NCBI GenBank assembly: GCA_043813605.1
Contig: JBDRKX010000069.1
Coordinates: 1 to 23,212, forward strand
Reading direction: 5' to 3'
DNA length: 23,212 nt
Source of the DNA: Elusimicrobiota bacterium
Lineage (GTDB): Bacteria > CG03 > SLGR01 > JBDRKX01
Part shown: piece after piece, positions 4,486-13,263 of the stretch
How positions within the stretch are numbered: position 1 is the first letter of the stretch
Layout: each line of letters opens with the position of its first letter
Notes under the pieces: generated by a model
The model's input: the letters and a program-made list of their open reading frames with translations, nothing else
Database searches by the model: none
Told to the model about the DNA's origin: nothing
Made by a program: the position numbers and the translations under genes

Positions 4486-5523
4486 TTATTCCATCACCTG
4501 CACCAGCAGGGCGCTTTTCTCAAAATCTTCTTTCCTGAAAGAACACCTTTCTTCCTGGCAATACTCCATAAGTACCTTGTAAGCATTCGCGGTATTGCCG
4601 AACTTATTCCCGCTGTCATCAGGATTTCTATCCGGATGGGTCAACAGAGCGGACTTCCGGTAGGCTTTTTTTATCTCATCCCTGTTCGAATAGTCCTGCA
4701 GCCCGAGCAGGTTTTTCGCGCTGCATATTTCTTCAAACGGCATCTTTTTTATTCCAAGCGTACAAAAATTGTAAGGCGGAAGAGGGCCCACGCATCTGAA
4801 ATTGACTTTATCGTTAAATTCCATGTCCAGCTTTTCGACAACGGAATCAAACTTCTCCTGCTGGTCCTTATCCACCGAACAGGCTATATTGATGATCATG
4901 CTCTCATCCATGACTTCATTTATCTTAAAACCCTGTACAATGTTTTCCAGCGTTTTCTGTATTTGACCGGCATATTTCCCTCTCTTTGTATTTAAAGCTT
5001 TCTTTACCATAAATCCCACCTGCATCTGATCTTCTATTGTTATTCCTTCAGGCTTGGATAAGAGAGTCTCTTTCAATGCCACGATCTCAGGTTCCCGGCT
5101 TGCTTCCTGCAGCGCTGAATTAAAATCGCTCCATACTGCGACTACATCGACTTCTACAATATTTTCTATCTTTCTGAAAACATCTTTGATTACGCCGTAT
5201 CCTTTTTCCAGCGCTTCGCTCACTTCGTCCTCGCCGCATACAATTGTCCCAATACTTACCGGCATGACAGGATAATACTTCATTATCTTCTCTACTATTA
5301 TCTGGTGACCGAGCAATATTTTGGCAAGAGATTCTTTGTTCATATTTCTGAGATCCGTGACTTCCGAATCACTGATTAAAGCTGATATATCCTGAAAACT
5401 TACAGCGCTGACCCTTTCCGCCTGCAGAATATTCATCATTTCTATCGACGGACTTCCGGTATTGATTATCCCGTAAATATATTTTCCCGTTACATTCAGC
5501 ATATCAGGCCTTCCTTTTTTCAT
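4486..5523 (-). CDS. GvpF/L-like protein with C-terminal J-domain (DnaJ-type, HPD motif)
   Basis: The first 270 aa carry GvpF/L motifs (KYIYGII, PVMPVSIGTI, GPLPPYNF). The C-terminus DYSNRDEIKKAYRKSALLTHPDRNPDD...KFGNTANAYKVL is a J-domain helix II-HPD-helix III. Confidence 0.8.
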   Translation of the reverse strand: MKKGRPDMLNVTGKYIYGIINTGSPSIEMMNILQAERVSAVSFQDISALISDSEVTDLRNMNKESLAKILLGHQIIVEKIMKYYPVMPVSIGTIVCGEDEVSEALEKGYGVIKDVFRKIENIVEVDVVAVWSDFNSALQEASREPEIVALKETLLSKPEGITIEDQMQVGFMVKKALNTKRGKYAGQIQKTLENIVQGFKINEVMDESMIINIACSVDKDQQEKFDSVVEKLDMEFNDKVNFRCVGPLPPYNFCTLGIKKMPFEEICSAKNLLGLQDYSNRDEIKKAYRKSALLTHPDRNPDDSGNKFGNTANAYKVLMEYCQEERCSFRKEDFEKSALLVQVME

Positions 5524-7657
5524 CGTTATTCTTCATTAACCTGATTGCTTCCAGAAAATGTCCTTTTTTAATAACCGGGTCTTTTTTGCTGTCAGGATTC
5601 TCTATGGCCTCCCTTATCGCAAGAATGGACGCCTTTCTGCAGATATATTCAATATCAGCGCCGGTTTTATTTTCCGTTTCTACGGCTAATTTTTTCAAAT
5701 CTATATCTTTTGCCATAGGTTTTTTACCGGTATGTATTCTGAAAATACTTTCTCTGGTTTTTTCATCGGGCGTCGGAAGTTTTAACAGAATGTCGAATCT
5801 GCCGCTTCTGAGTAAGGCCGGGTCGATAAGATCCAGCCTGTTTGTGGCGGCCAGGACAACCACGCCTTTAAGCTCTTCGATACCGTCCATCTCGGTGAGC
5901 ATCTGGCTGATCACCCGTTCCGCGACATGAGCCCCGTCCCCCGCAGATCCTTTTTTAGGGATCAAAGCGTCGATCTCGTCAAAAAACAGGATTGTTGGAG
6001 AGGCATGCCTGGCTATTTTAAACAGCTCGTGTATCGCCTTTTCGCTTTCCCCTATATATTTGGATATGAGCGACGGCCCTTTTACCGATATAAAGTTCAC
6101 CTTGCTCTCATTGGCCACCGCTTTGGCAAGTAGTGTCTTGCCCGTACCCGGTTCGCCGTAGAGCATAATGCCTTTCGGCGGGTTGGTGTCCATCTTTTTA
6201 AAAATATCCGGATATTTTATTGGCCACTCTACGGCCTCTTTCAGTTCCGCCTTCTCATTTTCCAGGCCTCCTATATCTTCCCATTTGACATCCGGCACTT
6301 CTATAAAATATTCCCGTACCGCCGAGGGTTCCACTTCTTTCATGGCCTCCATGAAATTATCCATGGTCACTTCCAGCTGAAGCAGTGTCTCATAAGGTAT
6401 ATCCGCCATCTCAAAATCTATTACAGGCAGGATCTTTCTCAGGGCTACCATGGCCGCTTCCCTTGCCAGAGCTTCCAGGTCAGCCCCGACAAATCCGTGC
6501 GTTATCTCCGCTATCTTCTGCATGCTCACATCTTCAGAAAGGGGCATTCCCCGGGTATGTATATGCAGGATATCGAGCCTTCCGTTCTTATCGGGTATAG
6601 GCACCGCTATTTCCCTGTCGAACCGCCCCGGCCTCCGGAGCGCCGGATCTATAGTATTGGGAATATTTGTGGCGCCTATTACTATTACATGGCCCCTGGA
6701 TTCCAGCCCGTCCATGAGCGACAGGAGTTGGGCGACGACCCTCCGTTCCACCTGTTTTTCTCCTCCCATGTCTTCTCTTTTTGGCGCTATTGCGTCTATT
6801 TCGTCTATAAATATTATCGCGGGCGCGTTTTTCTGGGCCTCTTCAAAAATACTCCTTAACCGGCCCTCGCTTTCGCCATAGAATTTCCCCATGATCTCCG
6901 GGCCGGATATGTGGGTGAAAAATGCGTCCGTCTCGTGGGCTACAGCCCGGGCTGTCAATGTCTTCCCTGTACCGGGAGGTCCGTATAGAAAAACTCCTTT
7001 TGGAGCTTCTACCCCTAACCGTTCGAATACTTCAGGATATTTCAGCGGGAGCTCTATCATCTCACGTATTCTCTGTACCTGAGGGCCCAATCCCCCTACA
7101 TCCTCGTACGATATTTTAATCGGGCCGGCTTTTTCCGACAGATTTGTCTTTACCTTTATCACGCTTGCGGAATCTACAATGACATTGCCGCAGGGACTTG
7201 TATCTGTTACCTTGAAATCACACCATCTCGATCCGAAGAGAGTAACTCTCACTCTGTCCCCGGCCGACACAGGTAAACCTTCAAGAAGGGAACCGATGTA
7301 TTTCGCGTCCTTATCCCTCTCAAGCAGGCTGGATACGGTTAAAGGTTCAATACTGATCTTTTGAGCCGGATTATATTCAGCTTTATGTACCTTTAGTTTC
7401 TCATCCAGCCCCACCCCTGCGTTATCTCTGGATATCCCGTCAATCTGAATGATCTTTTTTCCTCTATCTTCGCTATAAAGCGGCATTGCCTTTGCGGGAG
7501 TCTTTCTTTTTCCTTCTATCTCTATTATCTCTCCCACTTCTATATTGAGTAACTTCATATCTTCAGGGCCGATCCTGGCTATCGCCCTTCCTACGCTGTT
7601 CGGGAGAGCCTCCTGCACTTTTAAACTTATTGATTTATCTTTCTGTTTTGTATTCAT
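5504..7657 (-). CDS. Cdc48/VCP/VAT-like AAA+ ATPase (N-domain plus D1 and D2 AAA modules)
   Basis: Two Walker A sites, [17 protein letters not shown] and [17 protein letters not shown]. Two Walker B sites, [10 protein letters not shown] and [10 protein letters not shown]. Arginine fingers [13 protein letters not shown] and [10 protein letters not shown]. An N-terminal region of about 180 aa precedes D1. Confidence 0.9.
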
Positions 7658-8589
7658 GAAAATAACAGCTCCTTGAATCCCTTCAACACCTCTATGCCTT
7701 TCACCTCATTTGCCTGCAGCGGGACAATGGTTATTTTAAGCGTATTGAATTTTTCTTTTATCGCTTTTATATATTTCTCCTGGTCCTTTTTTTTAGCCTG
7801 GCAAAAATCGCATTTTCTGGATTCTAAAACATTATTTACTACTAACTGTTTTACATTTATGCCGTATTTATTAAGACTGTTTACCAATCTTTCAGTCTCT
7901 GAAATAGCCATATCTTCCGGTATGGTCACCGGTATAAACTCGCATTTCGAACTGTCTTTCAATATGCTTTCAACTTTTTTTACCGTCTTTTTCAGATCTA
8001 CAAGAAAATGATCGCCTTCATCGGGTTTATAATCTCCGGAAAGCCTTTTTACTATATATCTATACTTCCATCTCATTTGAGCCATTACTTTGATCCAGTC
8101 ATCTAACAGTCCCGGCAGGGTAAGCAGCCTTAAGGCATGCCCGGTGGGTGCGGTATCAACAATATATTTATCGTATCCCGATTTTTCTATTAAATCTACT
8201 ATTGTTTTAAATCCCATAACTTCGTCTAATCCGGGGATAGACAATGCGAACAGGGACTCGATATCTTCATCATCCATATAAGTCGAAGTTCCCAGGATCG
8301 TCTTTATCTCATTCTCATGCTCAATTTTAAATTCTTCAAAGGTCTCTTCTGCGCTTATTTCAAGGCCGCTTAAATGCTCGAAAGTTTTAATCTTTATTAT
8401 TGAATTCCCGATCTTCTGCCCTATACTGTCTGCCAGAGAATGGGCCGGGTCTGTAGATATCATTAAAGTATTATACACTTCCGATAAGTAAATTCCGGCA
8501 CCTGAAGCGCAGGTTGTTTTGCCTACTCCGCCTTTCCCGCCGAACAGAATCAGCTTTAACGAATCTTGTCTTAATCCGGATAAGCTCAC
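7654..8589 (-). CDS. ArsA/Get3-family ATPase
   Basis: Deviant Walker A LFGGKGGVGKTTCAS, ISTDPAHSLADS, switch II VDTAPTGHALRLL, and a CDFC (CxxC) motif near the C-terminus of the type Get3 uses for Zn-mediated dimerisation. The 4-nt ATGA-type overlap with the downstream Cdc48-like gene suggests translational coupling. Confidence 0.8.
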   Translation of the reverse strand: MSLSGLRQDSLKLILFGGKGGVGKTTCASGAGIYLSEVYNTLMISTDPAHSLADSIGQKIGNSIIKIKTFEHLSGLEISAEETFEEFKIEHENEIKTILGTSTYMDDEDIESLFALSIPGLDEVMGFKTIVDLIEKSGYDKYIVDTAPTGHALRLLTLPGLLDDWIKVMAQMRWKYRYIVKRLSGDYKPDEGDHFLVDLKKTVKKVESILKDSSKCEFIPVTIPEDMAISETERLVNSLNKYGINVKQLVVNNVLESRKCDFCQAKKKDQEKYIKAIKEKFNTLKITIVPLQANEVKGIEVLKGFKELLFS

Positions 8590-8595
8590 TGCTTC

Positions 8596-9126
8596 CTACT
8601 TTTTTATTCTTATTTCTAATATTCCGTTTGTATAGGAAAACGAAAGATTTGCGGCCTCGGCTTCTGCCGGGAGCAGTATTTCTTTATGGTACTTTCTTGA
8701 CCCGCCGCTGGCTGAAATATCAAGAACATCGCCTTTTAAATCCAGCTTTATATCTTTCTGATTTATCCCCGGCATTTCGGCATATACCCTGATCTCATTC
8801 TTCTCGTCAAACACATCAACAATAGGCTCTCTTTCTTCTTCTACCCTGGCGCCCTTATCAGTCTTTTTAATATTTCCAAACGACTCTACTACGGGTTTAC
8901 CACCCACGGCCGACTTTATTGAAAAGCCGAATACTCCTTTGGCTCCATTCTTAATATTGCCGAAGTCTATCTCTCCCTCTTTTTTTATTTCGCCGCCGGC
9001 TTCTTCCAGTTTCTGAGCAAGATCTACTAATTTTTCTATACCCTTAAATATTCCTCCCACGCTCAGCTTTCCTATGCCGAAATCCACTTCTATATCTTCT
9101 TTTTTTTTCTCTTTTTTCTTTACCAT
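8596..9126 (-). CDS. gvpH: Hsp20/alpha-crystallin family small heat-shock protein (GvpH-like)
   Basis: The C-terminal alpha-crystallin domain PIVDVFDEKNEIRVYAEMPGINQKDIKLDLKGDVLDISA...LPAEAEAANLSFSYTNGILEIRIKK includes the GILEI/IxI-like tail. The Lys/Gly-rich N-terminus is encoded over an A9 homopolymer. Confidence 0.8.
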   Translation of the reverse strand: MVKKKEKKKEDIEVDFGIGKLSVGGIFKGIEKLVDLAQKLEEAGGEIKKEGEIDFGNIKNGAKGVFGFSIKSAVGGKPVVESFGNIKKTDKGARVEEEREPIVDVFDEKNEIRVYAEMPGINQKDIKLDLKGDVLDISASGGSRKYHKEILLPAEAEAANLSFSYTNGILEIRIKK

Positions 9127-9145: not shown

Positions 9146-9460
9146 TTAATAACTTATAGCCATTCTTTTAATAGATCTGGCGGACTTGTTCTCTACAGTT
9201 TTAATTTCAGTTTCACTTTGTACTTCTTTTTGTAAACTCTCCAGACGCCCGTTGATACTGTCTATTTTTTTTATCAGACTTGCTTTTCTTTTTTCCATTG
9301 ACTCAAACTCCTTTTTAAGCCTGCCCTGTTCCAATATAAGAGAATACATCTCCAGGCACGAGGTCCTCTGCATCTTTGGAATTGAACGAAGCCCTGTGCC
9401 GCGCAGGCTCTTTATGTCTGTGAGGCCCGGCAACTGCTCTAATCTCTTTATGTTATGCAT
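9146..9460 (-). CDS. Hypothetical coiled-coil protein (104 aa) in gvp operon
   Basis: ORF track. Predicted coiled coil (LKKEFESMEKRKASLIKKIDSINGRLESLQKEVQ). Its start overlaps the gvpN stop by 13 nt. No family recognised. Confidence 0.4.
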   Translation of the reverse strand: MHNIKRLEQLPGLTDIKSLRGTGLRSIPKMQRTSCLEMYSLILEQGRLKKEFESMEKRKASLIKKIDSINGRLESLQKEVQSETEIKTVENKSARSIKRMAISY

Positions 9461-10386
9461 CGTGCTACACGCTCCTTTTGATTTTTCTCAACCAGCTCCC
9501 TGATTATCTCTTTGACTCTATCCTGGTTGGATCTCGAACCTACTCTGCTGGTTTCTGATGCAAGGATGTCCTGGCATATCTGTTTAAACTCCCCGTTTGA
9601 TTTTATTGGAGAGAGGTTCCGCATTTTAAGGGTCTTGGCAATCATAATGCATCCGCGTATAGTAGGAGAAAATTCGCATTTTCCGGAATCCCTTAAACCT
9701 CTTGCGATATTGACTATTATTTCCGCATGCTTTTTTGACATGTTTGATTTCGACCTGGTTATAGCTACCTCTGTCTCATAATCAAAGTGTTCCAAATCTA
9801 AGGTCACCATTCTATCCCTCAATGCATCCTGGCTTCTGTGAACACCTGCGTATTCTTCCGGATTACTGGTAAATATAGCCTTAAAATCTGCGTTAACTTT
9901 CAGGTATGGGCTGTCTCCTCTTGATTCAGGTAAGTCCATTATCCTTTCCTGCAGAATGGAAAGGAGTATGTTATTTGCTTCGGGCCGGGAACGGGTAAAC
10001 TCGTCGTAAATAAGTGTGTAACCGTATTTACACGCAACTGTAAGACGGTTATCTACCCATTTTTTCACCATATCCTCTTCTGTCTTTAATACCCGGGATA
10101 TGAATCTGTCAACAACTTTTTTTATCCTGTAACCATACTCGCCGCCAACAAGACTGGATGTTGTAAACTCTTCATCACCGTGTATCATAACAACGGGCCT
10201 GCCTAGCTTGCTGGCAATATGCATAGCCAGAGTTGTCTTACCGGTTCCCGACGGGCCCCTCAAATGAACCGGAAAACCCGAATTAATATAGGAAATTGCT
10301 CTACCGGTAATATTCTGAACATATTTTGTGTTCACAAAATCCGGCATAGGTGTCGGGTCAATTACTGTACTTGTATCATCAATCAT
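9448..10386 (-). CDS. gvpN: Gas vesicle protein GvpN (MoxR/CbbQ-like AAA+ ATPase)
   Basis: FPVHLRGPSGTGKTTLAMHIASKLGRPVVMIHGDEE (Walker A plus GvpN-specific flank), Walker B TLIYDEFTRSRPE, length 312 aa. Confidence 0.9.
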   Translation of the reverse strand: MIDDTSTVIDPTPMPDFVNTKYVQNITGRAISYINSGFPVHLRGPSGTGKTTLAMHIASKLGRPVVMIHGDEEFTTSSLVGGEYGYRIKKVVDRFISRVLKTEEDMVKKWVDNRLTVACKYGYTLIYDEFTRSRPEANNILLSILQERIMDLPESRGDSPYLKVNADFKAIFTSNPEEYAGVHRSQDALRDRMVTLDLEHFDYETEVAITRSKSNMSKKHAEIIVNIARGLRDSGKCEFSPTIRGCIMIAKTLKMRNLSPIKSNGEFKQICQDILASETSRVGSRSNQDRVKEIIRELVEKNQKERVARCIT

Positions 10387-10404: not shown

Positions 10405-10560
10405 TTATCTTCTGCATGCAAACCAAACCTGTTTCTTGTTGCCTGCTTTTACTGCGTTTTCTGTCCCATTACAAACCGGACAGGCTCCTGTAGTATGAAC
10501 CAGATTTAAAGGCGCTGCCTTGCCTGTTCCTTTACAAAACGAATATCTATCTGCATCCAT
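10405..10560 (-). CDS. Small zinc-ribbon-like ORF (51 aa), unannotated in the track
   Basis: Own translation: MDADRYSFCKGTGKAAPLNLVHTTGACPVCNGTENAVKAGNKKQVWFACRR, i.e. C-x17-CxxC-x18-C including a CxxCxGxx motif. RBS GAGGAAA lies 6 nt upstream. Sits between the repeat-protein gene and gvpN. Confidence 0.35.
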   Translation of the reverse strand: MDADRYSFCKGTGKAAPLNLVHTTGACPVCNGTENAVKAGNKKQVWFACRR

Positions 10561-10605: not shown

Positions 10606-10983
10606 TCATGACATTTTTTTTGCACCTTTAGCAGACCTATTCCCATCTGCTCCCATCCTTTTATTTCTTAAAGTCTCAGCCATCAGGTTCCAGATTTGCC
10701 TACTTTCGGCCAAATCTTCTTTTACTTCCTCTTCCTTTCTTCTGAAATCCTCTTTTAAAGTGTTGACACTATTAACCAGGTCTTCTCTTGTTTCCTGTAA
10801 GCCAATCTTCAACTCATTACTCATCCTCTGGTGCATTCTTTTAGACTCGATTAAGAACTTCCTTGCCTTATCTCTTATAGCTTTCGCATCCTTTTTGAGG
10901 TTTTTAATGCCCCTTCTTCTATCTTCGTAACTCATTACAATGTCTTCACTAAGAGACTCCATCCCTGTTGACACTTTACCCAT
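10606..10983 (-). CDS. Alpha-helical repeat protein, paralogue C of a three-member family (candidate GvpC-like)
   Basis: N-terminal motif SEDIVMSYEDRRRGIKNL shared with the ORFs at 11332-12135 (TEDIVGSFNERVKAIGDL) and 12152-12733 (LKNVLTSYDEGVHSIGSI). Internal FLIESKRMHQRMSNEL resembles the FxxEHKxMSxEL repeats of paralogue B. Confidence 0.5.
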   Translation of the reverse strand: MGKVSTGMESLSEDIVMSYEDRRRGIKNLKKDAKAIRDKARKFLIESKRMHQRMSNELKIGLQETREDLVNSVNTLKEDFRRKEEEVKEDLAESRQIWNLMAETLRNKRMGADGNRSAKGAKKMS

Positions 10984-10986
10984 AAA

Positions 10987-11331
10987 CTAACCTCCTTTTA
11001 GAACAACTCCTTTGCCCCCACATTTGATACAGGGTAATCCGCTACCTCCTGTCCGGCCGGTGCCTTTGCACTCTTCACATTCTTCGGTTGAACCTATTAC
11101 TGTAACGCTTCCCTTGCCACCGCATACTGTACAGGTAATACGGCTATGAGGGTAAATACCACTGCCTTTACAAAAAACGCATTTAATCACAGGTTCCTTA
11201 ACTTCAACCTTACCCTTACCCAGGCATACCTGACAAGTAGAAAGCTTTGATAACAGCTTAAAAGGATCCTTTCCTTTTCCATTACAAAAAGCACATTTAA
11301 TCAGGCTCATATTTTTATCTTTTCGCTCCAA
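10987..11331 (-). CDS. DnaJ-type zinc-finger repeat protein with six CxxCxGxG motifs
   Basis: CAFCNGKG, CQVCLGKG, CVFCKGSG, CTVCGGKG, CEECKGTG and CIKCGGKG in 114 aa. The motif is diagnostic of the DnaJ Cys-rich domain (Pfam DnaJ_CXXCXGXG). No J-domain in this ORF. Confidence 0.7.
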   Translation of the reverse strand: MERKDKNMSLIKCAFCNGKGKDPFKLLSKLSTCQVCLGKGKVEVKEPVIKCVFCKGSGIYPHSRITCTVCGGKGSVTVIGSTEECEECKGTGRTGGSGLPCIKCGGKGVVLKGG

Positions 11332-12135
11332 CTACCTTTTATGTACTGCACAGAATTTAGAACCCTTAACAGATTTTCCCTTACAGTTTTTCCCGGACTT
11401 CGTAGTGCCAGCACATTTACTTACTCCCCTGCCCTTTTTAACAGTTTTGCTGATCTCTGATGTCTTTTTTCCGGCATCAATCTTAGGCACTACACCTTCC
11501 TTCCTGGCTTTGTTCAATACTGAAGACATTCCCTGCCAGGCTTCCTTTGCTTTTTTCATATCCAAATCACATTCACCCAGGAACCCTTTAACATCACTGA
11601 CAATACCGCCAACATATTTACCTAAACTCTTTCTCAATGCATCACTCATATCAGAATGTTCTTCATTAAACTCCTTTAACTTCTGTGAAACATCGCATTC
11701 GATATTTTTAATGCTTTCATTGATACTCCCCATCATATCTTTAAAGTCTTTTAACCTATCAACTTCGCCTTTTGCTAAGCCTTTTTTAAGAAAATCCGCC
11801 ATCTCCTTATGCTCTTTCTGAAAACTTTTGATCATATTCCCTACTTCATCGGTCATATTCCCAACAAAATTTCCTAAGTCTTTTGTCAGTTCAATACTCA
11901 TCTGTTTATGTTCTGTCTGGAATTCTTTCAGAAAATTTTGTACGTTCTTTGACAATCCATCTACAAATGCAGCCAAATCATCTGCCTGTTCCTTACTCAT
12001 CTTTTTTCTGTCCAACTTGAACTTTTTCAAAGTTTCTTGGGTATCAACAGTTAAATCACCAATTGCCTTTACCCGCTCATTAAAGGACCCAACAATGTCT
12101 TCTGTAACCTTTTTCATTTCATTTGCAACAACCAT
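11332..12135 (-). CDS. Alpha-helical protein with exact 33-residue repeats (candidate GvpC analogue), paralogue B; C-terminal Lys/Cys/His tail
   Basis: Phe39/Phe72/Phe105 anchor three repeats at exact 33-aa spacing: KFKLDRKKMSKEQADDL, EFQTEHKQMSIELTKDL and SFQKEHKEMADFLKKGL. A looser fourth copy is EFNEEHSDMSDALRKSL. The tail reads KCAGTTKSGKNCKGKSVKGSKFCAVHKR. It lies second after gvpA, near where gvpC usually sits. Confidence 0.55.
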   Translation of the reverse strand: MVVANEMKKVTEDIVGSFNERVKAIGDLTVDTQETLKKFKLDRKKMSKEQADDLAAFVDGLSKNVQNFLKEFQTEHKQMSIELTKDLGNFVGNMTDEVGNMIKSFQKEHKEMADFLKKGLAKGEVDRLKDFKDMMGSINESIKNIECDVSQKLKEFNEEHSDMSDALRKSLGKYVGGIVSDVKGFLGECDLDMKKAKEAWQGMSSVLNKARKEGVVPKIDAGKKTSEISKTVKKGRGVSKCAGTTKSGKNCKGKSVKGSKFCAVHKR

Positions 12136-12151
12136 CTTTTTCCTCCTTACA

Positions 12152-12733
12152 TTACTTACTTTTACTATACTTCCCCAGCATCACTTTAAAATCATTTATC
12201 TTTAGGACTTTCCCCTTGGAAAGAAGCTCTCCGAGGTCATCTGCCAATGCCTTTTGTATGTTTTGAAATTCGATAAGCTTTTCTGAAATCTCTTTTTTGC
12301 TCTTTTCCTGATCGCTGATCGCTTCTCTATTAACTTCATATAACTCCCGGGACTGTATCTTCTTACCACTAATTAGAGAAACCTTAATAAGTTCCATATT
12401 TTTCCTTAACTTATATGCCGCTTCTTTCTGCTCATTAAGGTATCTCTTAAATAACCTCCTGATTTCTTCCATGGTTTGGTCCTGCACAGAAATTATTTCT
12501 TTCATCATATTGTCAAAATCTTTTTTCCGCAGATGTTCATTTATAGAAAGATTGTTTTTTAGTTCCTCACTTATTTTCTGCCTTTCCTTATCTGCGCCAA
12601 GTATGGATTCCTGGAAACTTCCGATGATCAGATGGGCATCATCAAATATTGACCCTATACTGTGAACACCTTCATCATAAGAAGTCAAAACATTTTTTAG
12701 AATTTTACTTGCATTTACTGTTGTGTTAGTCAT
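12152..12733 (-). CDS. Alpha-helical repeat protein, paralogue A (candidate GvpC-like), immediately downstream of gvpA
   Basis: Shares the N-terminal motif and a repeat-like segment LIEFQNIQKALADDL with paralogues B and C. RBS AAGAAGGA precedes the ATG. Confidence 0.5.
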   Translation of the reverse strand: MTNTTVNASKILKNVLTSYDEGVHSIGSIFDDAHLIIGSFQESILGADKERQKISEELKNNLSINEHLRKKDFDNMMKEIISVQDQTMEEIRRLFKRYLNEQKEAAYKLRKNMELIKVSLISGKKIQSRELYEVNREAISDQEKSKKEISEKLIEFQNIQKALADDLGELLSKGKVLKINDFKVMLGKYSKSK

Positions 12734-12778
12734 CTTAAAATATCCTTCTTTTCATTCCTTATTATTAGAAGAAATTGG

Positions 12779-12823
12779 CGAGATATGCTCTCTAGTGTTA
12801 ACACTGGATAAAAGGACATCTCG
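12779..12823 (-). terminator. Hairpin between gvpA and the downstream genes; candidate partial terminator/attenuator or operator
   Basis: Perfect 12-bp palindrome agtgttaacact (12794-12805) nested in a longer imperfect inverted repeat gcgagat...atctcgg. On the transcript it is followed by the semi-U-rich GCCAAUUUCUUCUAAUAAU. Confidence 0.35.
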
Positions 12824-12851
12824 GCAAATCCCTCTTTTTACTTGCTTTGCC

Positions 12852-13058
12852 TTACGCTGCTGTTGCGGTCAAGCCTATTGCTTCAGCATATTTCAGGTAA
12901 GTTTCTACTGATGCAACTACAACACGCGCTTCGATAGCAAGCAGCTCGATTCCCACTAATGAGAATCTCACCCATGCGTCAATCACGACCCCCTTGTCCA
13001 GTATCCGGTCGACAACATCGACAAGACTGGAAGAACCAATTGCTTTTTCCATTGCCAT
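12852..13058 (-). CDS. gvpA: Gas vesicle major structural protein GvpA
   Basis: [63 protein letters not shown] is the near-invariant GvpA core. AGGAGG RBS (plus strand cctcct 13067-13072) lies 8 nt upstream. Confidence 0.95.
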
Positions 13059-13235: not shown

Positions 13236-13263
13236 ATTATACCTATAATATATTATTTGTCAA
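13236..13263 (-). promoter_or_regulatory. Consensus sigma70-type promoter for gvpA (TTGACA-N16-TATAAT)
   Basis: Minus strand reads cTTGACAaataatatattataggTATAATagg. The -35 element is at 13263-13258 and the -10 element at 13241-13236. Predicted TSS is near 13229, giving a 5' UTR of about 170 nt. Confidence 0.5.

Follow-up and report, generated by a model that had tools for sequence, protein, structure and literature searches.

GvpC is a handle for tuning the strength and acoustic behavior of gas vesicles, and several well-studied gas vesicle (gvp) gene clusters have been described as lacking it. The stretch of DNA analyzed here, called the window, comprises all 23,212 nucleotides (nt) of contig JBDRKX010000069.1 (assembly GCA_043813605.1) from a metagenome-assembled genome (MAG) of an Elusimicrobiota bacterium. 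It carries a gvp cluster in which all genes lie on the minus strand, as do all the features given below. Downstream of gvpA (12852–13058), which encodes the major gas vesicle shell protein of 68 amino acids (aa; PF00741, E 2e-16; NCBIfam GvpA, 126.5 bits), the order is X193 (12152–12733; 193 aa), X267 (11332–12135; 267 aa), ZnF114 (10987–11331; 114 aa), X125 (10606–10983; 125 aa), a second small Cys-rich open reading frame (ORF) of 51 aa (10405–10560), and gvpN (9448–10386), which encodes an AAA+ protein (TIGR02640 GvpN, 339 bits). ZnF114 is a stand-alone zinc-finger protein of the DnaJ CXXCXGXG type (PF00684, 40.5 bits; cut-off 32.7). X193, X267 and X125 are each labelled "hypothetical protein" by NCBI (ABIH89_06410, 06415, 06420). 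Sequence comparison, gene order and structure prediction indicate that X267 is probably a remote homologue of cyanobacterial GvpC, a divergent member of that lineage.

Three paralogous proteins and the repeats of X267

A first-pass annotation, made from the letters of the window, had claimed that three paralogous α-helical proteins follow gvpA, and this was borne out. The BLASTP E values were 3e-6 for X267 and X125, 8e-6 for X267 and X193, and 0.008 for X193 and X125. On comparison of family profiles by hhalign, X193 aligned with X267 at 99.6% probability (E 2e-24) and X125 with X267 at 91.5% (E 9e-7). A hidden Markov model (HMM) of the X267 family, run over 227 segments of the window, gave only two matches apart from X267 itself, to X193 (40.5 bits) and to X125 (35.6 bits). 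The three proteins are true paralogues. No Pfam or NCBIfam model reached its cut-off on any of them. The N-terminal motif DIVxS[YF]xER, described in the same annotation as common to all three, is degenerate in X193 (NVLTSYDEG). X267 consists of this N-terminal cap (N-cap), five units in the GvpC frame and a basic Cys/His tail; X193 has the shared cap and a repeat period of ~58 aa; in the short X125 about one unit lies between the N-cap and a C-terminal W motif. X125, X267 and X193 carry consecutive NCBI accessions and locus tags, so the ORF of ZnF114, although placed between the first two, seems to lack a protein record.

In X267 the motif F..[DE][RH]..M begins at residues 39, 72, 105 and 156. 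The self-diagonal at lag 33 scored 118, compared with a mean shuffle maximum of 33 (standard deviation 5), and none of 300 shuffles reached that value. The exact 33-aa period with anchor Phe residues at 39, 72 and 105, as read in the first pass, is thus a statistically supported internal repeat. Further peaks at lags 51, 66, 84 and 117 indicate that the third unit is 51 aa long, that is, 33 plus an insert of 18 aa, and that the spacing of 33 resumes at 156 and 189. By these anchors the units start at F39, F72, F105 (the 51-residue unit), F156 and C189. In the GvpC frame the repeat region covers aa 25–207 (11515–12063), with units at 25–57, 58–90, 91–123, 142–174 and 175–207. The insert, EVDRLKDFKDMMGSINES (11713–11766), accounts for lags 51 and 84, and its element KGExDRLKDFKxMM is also present in 51-aa units of relatives. 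The 33-aa period is a property of X267 and not of its paralogues: X193 gave a score of 57 at lag 58, which 0 of 300 shuffles reached, and X125 has a weak period of 47 (1 of 300 shuffles).

The hydrophobicity of residues 1–215 of X267 has a single coherent period of 3.64 (power 267; null maximum 55). This indicates a near-straight hydrophobic stripe, not the period of 3.5 of a coiled coil. An AlphaFold2 model computed with 36 homologues has helices at residues 2–159 and 165–212, followed by a disordered tail, with a mean predicted local distance difference test (pLDDT) score of 60.

X267 and the cyanobacterial GvpC lineage

Two references were used for GvpC. One was a set of at least seven metagenomic proteins with PF01304, found with an Anabaena GvpC query (best BLASTP identity 91%); the other was the RefSeq-annotated GvpC of Nostoc sphaeroides. 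With hhalign, the alignment of the X267 family to Nostoc GvpC had a probability of 92% (E 7e-7) and covered 107 collinear columns from GvpC residue 1 onward; comparison with an alignment of five cyanobacterial GvpCs gave 89.5% (E 2e-6), and with seven metagenomic GvpCs 68.5% (E 4.6e-5; score 37.7). As controls for the last score, 100 column-shuffled GvpC alignments averaged 11.5 and did not exceed 18.1, and the reversed alignment gave 13.1. The collinear match takes in an N-terminal segment outside the repeats (LVKDTHETL vs. LFKETHEFL). When a GvpC HMM was run over 1634 ORFs of related loci, the ten best matches were all X267-like. The best relative scored 59.6 bits, and 42 of the 182 family members scored at least 25 bits; the X267 of the window scored 21.4 bits over residues 25–114, against 13.0 bits for reversed and at most 11.9 bits for shuffled HMMs. 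X267 was the sole significant match of this HMM in the window. In the reciprocal search the X267-family HMM gave Nostoc GvpC 49.8 bits, compared with 23.7 bits for the best PDB match, ApoA-IV.

The first-pass annotation had stated that no recognisable gvpC is present and had proposed all three paralogues as candidate GvpC analogues. The former statement holds for the curated models, PF01304 and NCBIfam, and fails at the level of profiles, where both hhalign and HMMER match X267. As to the latter, X267 appears to stand closer to GvpC than an analogue would, since it has the N-terminal start, the 33-aa register and the binding-face residues in common with it; for X193 and X125 the proposal is not supported.

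The register was obtained from a circular comparison of 33-column profiles, in which the units were framed by the anchors of X267 itself and not by GvpC. One shift stood out, with a score of 25.0; no other exceeded 2.9, not even those of 11 and 22 residues, which keep the amphipathic phase, and 0 of 5000 column permutations reached the best score. In this register position n of GvpC is residue n + 24 of X267. In GvpCs, L4, F11, L12, R19, Q26, L30 and F33 are more than 90% conserved and lie on one helical face; replacement of the conserved Leu, Phe and Arg residues by Ala abolished stabilization; and in a docking model one repeat spans four GvpA molecules, with Arg19 and Gln26 bonded to GvpA Glu52 and Glu59 (Huber et al., 2023; PMC9994262). 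In the X267 family, 156 distinct units taken from 95 proteins have Leu at position 30 throughout (100%) and mostly Leu at positions 4 (75%, with Ile as the alternative) and 12 (74%). Arg (52%) and His (43%) share position 19, Gln occupies position 26 in 78% of the units, and position 33 holds Phe (76%) or Tyr (19%). Met, Leu and Phe all occur at position 11. Among the five units of the window, only the first has Gln26. The phase of the conserved face is 46° in X267 and 53° in GvpC. The anchor Phe residues at 39, 72 and 105 fall at GvpC position 15, and with the conserved Met22 they lie on the same face, which makes the stripe more hydrophobic than the cyanobacterial one. A correlation of conservation patterns between X267 units and GvpC gave r 0.75 at shift 0 and 0.74 at shift 11; it leaves the register unfixed and is not used as evidence here.

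The GvpA of the window is presumed to be the docking partner of X267. It is 79% identical to the GvpA of Nostoc sphaeroides, and residues 50–60, which make up helix α2 with Glu52 and Glu59, are identical in the two proteins.

A word-indexed search found 36 homologues of X267. An exhaustive profile search of 1.84 billion representatives gave 1665 representative clusters at E ≤1e-3, the weaker of which probably include some canonical GvpCs, and 209 at E ≤1e-30. A genome scan with the conserved N-terminal sub-alignment gave 25 loci, all in MAGs or single-amplified genomes, from Omnitrophota, Pirellulales, Latescibacter, Ignavibacteriales, Nitrospirota, Nitrospinota, Elusimicrobia, Thermodesulfobacteriota, Bacteroidota, Cloacimonadota and one contig binned as Methanobacteriota. 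In gas vesicle clusters the family is spread over at least 11 mostly uncultured phyla. The Methanobacteriota contig, 2 kb in length and from the MAG of an archaeon, carries a bacterial-type trio of X193-like, X267-like and zinc-finger genes, which could reflect lateral transfer or a binning error.

Gene order was judged in 27 loci, these 25 and two more, annotated with the proteins of the window. It is constant: gvpA, an X193-like gene, an X267-like gene, usually a zinc-finger gene, sometimes an X125-like gene, gvpN, and a chaperone block. Wherever upstream DNA is present gvpA lies directly upstream, and in ~20 loci the zinc-finger gene is directly 3′ of the X267-like gene. The order gvpA-gvpC-gvpN is seen in pNRC100 of Halobacterium and in a Nostoc plasmid, so that X267 occupies the gvpC slot; in the window X193 separates gvpA from X267. 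Family members have gained and lost whole units, and the dominant period is 33, 40, 44, 51, 58 or 69, depending on the protein. The differences between these lengths are sums of 7 and 11, which fits a helical phase that is kept. The idea that unit lengths are multiples of the GvpA spacing of ~8.3 residues was also considered: 33, 51 and 58 fit, and 40, 44 and 69 do not. It was dropped, since nearly any length fits within 5–8%.

The C-terminal part of the family is variable. In the window the basic tail of X267 covers aa 213–267 (11335–11499), with 16 Lys or Arg among 55 residues and a pLDDT below 50. Its Cys/His motif is C241-x9-C251-x10-C262-x2-H265 (nt 11341–11415); the first-pass annotation had given the two longer spacings in the wrong order, as C-x10-C-x9-CxxH. 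The tail, noted there as an oddity, is found in no other of the 182 family members. The tail has a match to zf-TRM13_CCCH at E 0.16, which is below the cut-off. About half of the 182 members end in a conserved winged-helix-turn-helix-like (wHTH-like) domain; others end in Lys-rich tails. The wHTH-like end, ~60 aa in length, follows an acidic linker, as in the family proteins P0002, P0013 and P0024 (..VLxFIxxHPEGVxVxDME..LGxxRxxLGxIAKKL..GKVRKE..YFPL). For one family member PF12802 MarR_2 is precomputed for this domain; a Pfam search with that of P0002 gave no match. The C-terminal zinc-finger domain of haloarchaeal GvpC is of the ROS_MUCR type (27.6 bits, above cut-off), and binding of this domain to several Gvp proteins has been reported (PMC9501494). 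By analogy, the tail of X267 probably binds zinc and other Gvp proteins.

The surrounding locus

A candidate sigma-70 promoter lies at 13236–13263, ~175 nt 5′ of the gvpA start codon. A pattern scan found TTGACA and TATAAT separated by 16 nt, 12 of 12 consensus positions; by this match to the consensus only, it is a likely start of the gvp operon. A scan downstream of gvpA found no terminator-like site. The intergenic RNA between gvpA and X193 (12734–12855) is mildly stable (−27.7 kcal/mol; z −2.3 relative to shuffles), and a long-range stem within it spans the ribosome-binding region of X193; such a stem could lower the translation of X193 relative to that of gvpA.

After gvpN there is an ORF of 104 aa, for which only weak Pfam matches of coiled-coil type were found. 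It is followed by a chaperone block within the gvp cluster (4486–9126), which consists of Hsp20, a single-domain ArsA/Get3 ATPase, a Cdc48-type double AAA+ protein and a GvpF/L protein fused to a C-terminal J domain. This block is also present across related loci, and ArsA and Hsp20 in gvp clusters were reported by Castillo and Saier (2010; PMC2963123). Further copies of GvpF/L, together with GvpG and a GvpJ-GvpK fusion, complete the series. In the fusion protein (818–1351) a Gas_vesicle domain of the GvpA/J type is joined to a GvpK domain; a Gas_vesicle-GvpK fusion has been mentioned for Anabaena flos-aquae in a review (PMC10903477). Upstream of the gvp operon, between 13290 and 23155, there are genes for a Wzz/kinase-like protein with a fused receiver domain, for a lone receiver and for TPR and PEGA proteins, as well as polysaccharide synthesis genes, of which one is likewise receiver-fused. 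In related loci two-component and sigma-54 regulators precede gvpA instead.

Proposed function, alternatives and comparison with known systems

In the proposed mechanism X267 would form an amphipathic α-helix of ~210 residues (~31 nm) running along the GvpA ribs at the outer face of the gas vesicle. The conserved stripe of each 33-residue unit, which in GvpC numbering consists of L4, F/M11, L12, F15, R/H19, M22, Q/L26, L30 and F/Y33, would face the exposed α2 helices of about four consecutive GvpA molecules, and the 18-residue insert in one unit would roughly preserve the helical phase. Neighboring GvpA molecules would be tied together, which would raise the collapse pressure of the vesicle. 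The disordered basic tail with its Cys/His motif would project off the shell. Homology, register, conservation of the partner and gene position make it likely, in our judgment, that X267 follows the ribs and stiffens the shell as GvpC does; its surface location and strengthening action are inferred, as are the roles of the tail, X193 and X125.

X193 and X125 probably arose by duplication of the same gene as X267, with retention of the N-terminal cap. Their interior differs, with units of 58 or 51 aa or a single unit; the C-terminal W motif is usually kept in family members. We suggest tentatively, as a possibility somewhat short of even, that they are accessory coat proteins, or partners that join belts of X267 or their ends. 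In another MAG an X193-like protein (locus L002, 8712–9800, plus strand) carries a C-terminal KaiB (thioredoxin-like) domain.

Several observations weigh against the assignment of X267 to GvpC. PF01304, which gives bona fide Nostoc GvpC 160 bits, did not match X267 at E values up to 0.1–1, and it is absent from the families listed for 36 of 36 close homologues and for the six most GvpC-like relatives; nor did NCBIfam give a GvpC match to X267. The hhalign probabilities of 89–92% do not exceed 95% in any case, and the score of the window protein with the GvpC HMM is only 21 bits. Position 11 is mostly Met or Leu, not Phe, position 19 is His in three of the five units of the window, and the period of 33 aa is not constant in the family. 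The pLDDT of the X267 model is 72–89 over the first 80 residues and low beyond residue 80. Neither the X193 nor the X125 family gave a GvpC signal with hhalign, and the GvpC HMM reached only E 0.1 on X125. The AlphaFold2 model of X193, computed with seven homologues, has four helices (predicted template modeling score 0.58) in a helical bundle and not a rod; a Foldseek search of PDB with this model found nothing below E 0.1, only generic helical bundles. Without a 33-aa period or a GvpC signature, and with a predicted bundle for X193, the two paralogues do not support the GvpC-like character that had been proposed for all three and that X267 retains. The cluster is rich in chaperones, which is compatible with a role in assembly. 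Finally, all carriers are uncultured, and the X267 family is known from sequences alone.

The chief alternative is a role in assembly, as holdases. By shielding the sticky surfaces of GvpA for a time, namely α2 and the hydrophobic pockets, the three helical proteins would keep it soluble and pass it to the growing rib together with the neighboring chaperones; they would be absent from mature vesicles or present in traces. Two DnaJ-type zinc-finger proteins, Hsp20, ArsA/Get3, Cdc48 and the GvpF/L-J-domain fusion do adjoin them, X193 is predicted to be a soluble helical bundle, and the sub-threshold matches include exchangeable apolipoproteins, which alternate between bundled and surface-bound states. 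However, the conserved stripe of X267 is the one by which GvpC binds the assembled rib (PMC9994262), and a 33-aa register is sensible only against a periodic lattice. We consider an assembly role unlikely, and the two other alternatives less likely still. According to one of these, X267 is an independent amphipathic coat of the apolipoprotein or phasin type, which came to make the same contacts because it meets the same invariant α2 surface of GvpA. With the phasin and apolipoprotein models (PF09602, PF01442, PF07464) all matches were below the gathering scores. Most family members have such sub-threshold matches to Apolipoprotein, ApoLp-III, PhaP_Bmeg, HsbA and Baculo_PEP_C, and ApoA-IV is the best PDB sequence match of the family HMM (E 3.5e-4). 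The lack of a GvpC signal in the paralogues, and a positional conservation that is 11-periodic and by itself does not fix the register, point in the same direction. Bona fide Nostoc GvpC, however, has the same sub-threshold match to PhaP_Bmeg, so that a likeness to phasins, which the first-pass annotation had expected to speak against GvpC, does not do so. Convergence would also have to account for the common gene slot, for collinearity from GvpC residue 1 through a segment outside the repeats, and for a score with Nostoc GvpC well above that with ApoA-IV; we hold it to be improbable.

The C-terminal modules suggest a further alternative, in which these proteins act as regulators or bind nucleic acids. 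Their helical region would serve as a sensor or oligomerization module, and the C-terminal module would bind DNA or RNA and control gvp expression or tether vesicles. The wHTH-like end of about half the family, with PF12802 MarR_2 in one member, the very basic tail and CCCH-like motif of the window protein, and the DNA-binding type of the ROS_MUCR finger in haloarchaeal GvpC could all be read in this way. Yet the helical repeats are the conserved part of the family, and the C-terminal module is exchanged freely or shrunk to a Lys-rich tail; Pfam has no match for the wHTH-like end of P0002 and the CCCH match is below threshold; and the reported partners of the haloarchaeal zinc finger are Gvp proteins (PMC9501494). 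This role seems very improbable. A larger role for the three paralogues can also be imagined, as a heteromeric exoskeleton in which X267 would form a GvpC-type rib belt, and the N-cap and W motif would let X193 and X125 link or cap such belts. Unit lengths of 33–69 aa would tune the belt to the diameter or strength of the vesicle, and the C-terminal modules (wHTH-like, Lys-rich, CCCH-like, and KaiB on the X193 relative) would be anchors that link vesicles with DNA, with one another, or with clock or redox signals. This proposal is speculative and we think it unlikely; if true, it would amount to a modular gas vesicle coat unseen in model organisms.

If X267 does belong to the GvpC lineage, its family would form a broad unannotated branch of GvpC in which unit lengths are mixed, caps are conserved, C-terminal modules are swappable and paralogues accompany the gene. 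A large family would thus be tied to cyanobacterial GvpC through its GvpA-contacting residues, which indicates a gap in the annotation by Pfam and NCBIfam. The contact between GvpC and α2 of GvpA appears to go back much further, and to be much more widely distributed, than one would judge from the curated models, and natural variants in unit length and C-terminal module may be a resource for engineering.

Reviews describe GvpC only in cyanobacterial and haloarchaeal forms, and a search of the literature on GvpC-like proteins and GvpC homologues found no description of proteins of the X267 kind. Apolipoproteins and phasins (ApoA-IV, ApoLp-III, PhaP) resemble X267 in their long amphipathic helices with periodicity based on 11 residues, which coat a hydrophobic or structured surface as X267 would, and in weak sequence matches; unlike X267, they coat lipid or polyhydroxyalkanoate and have no link to gvp clusters. 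Haloarchaeal GvpC (Halobacterium p-vac and c-vac) has the same gene slot, variable-length helical repeats (32–40 aa), and a linker followed by a small C-terminal Cys/His module. It differs in being highly acidic and in having a bona fide ROS_MUCR C2H2 finger, where X267 has a CCCH-like basic tail. The hhalign probability for X267 and haloarchaeal GvpC was 0.1%, equal to that for haloarchaeal and cyanobacterial GvpC, and X193 likewise had no similarity to the haloarchaeal protein. Since haloarchaeal GvpC is unlike even cyanobacterial GvpC, it is of no use for or against membership.

The closest known system is cyanobacterial GvpC (PF01304) of Anabaena, Nostoc and Microcystis. X267 differs from it in escaping the PF01304 and NCBIfam models, in its additional conserved Phe15 and Met22, in having Met or Leu at position 11 and often His in place of R19, and in its mixed units, of 33 and 51 aa here and 40–69 aa in relatives. 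It also has an N-cap (EDIVxSYxxR), a C-terminal W motif and an appended C-terminal module, and it comes with two paralogues and a DnaJ-type zinc-finger gene, outside the cyanobacteria. Common to both are the slot between gvpA and gvpN, an all-helical and amphipathic structure in tandem units of 33 residues, a similar length (~190–210 helical residues), a collinear N-terminus, an identical GvpA α2, and the register of L4, L12, R19, Q26, L30 and F33 on one face.

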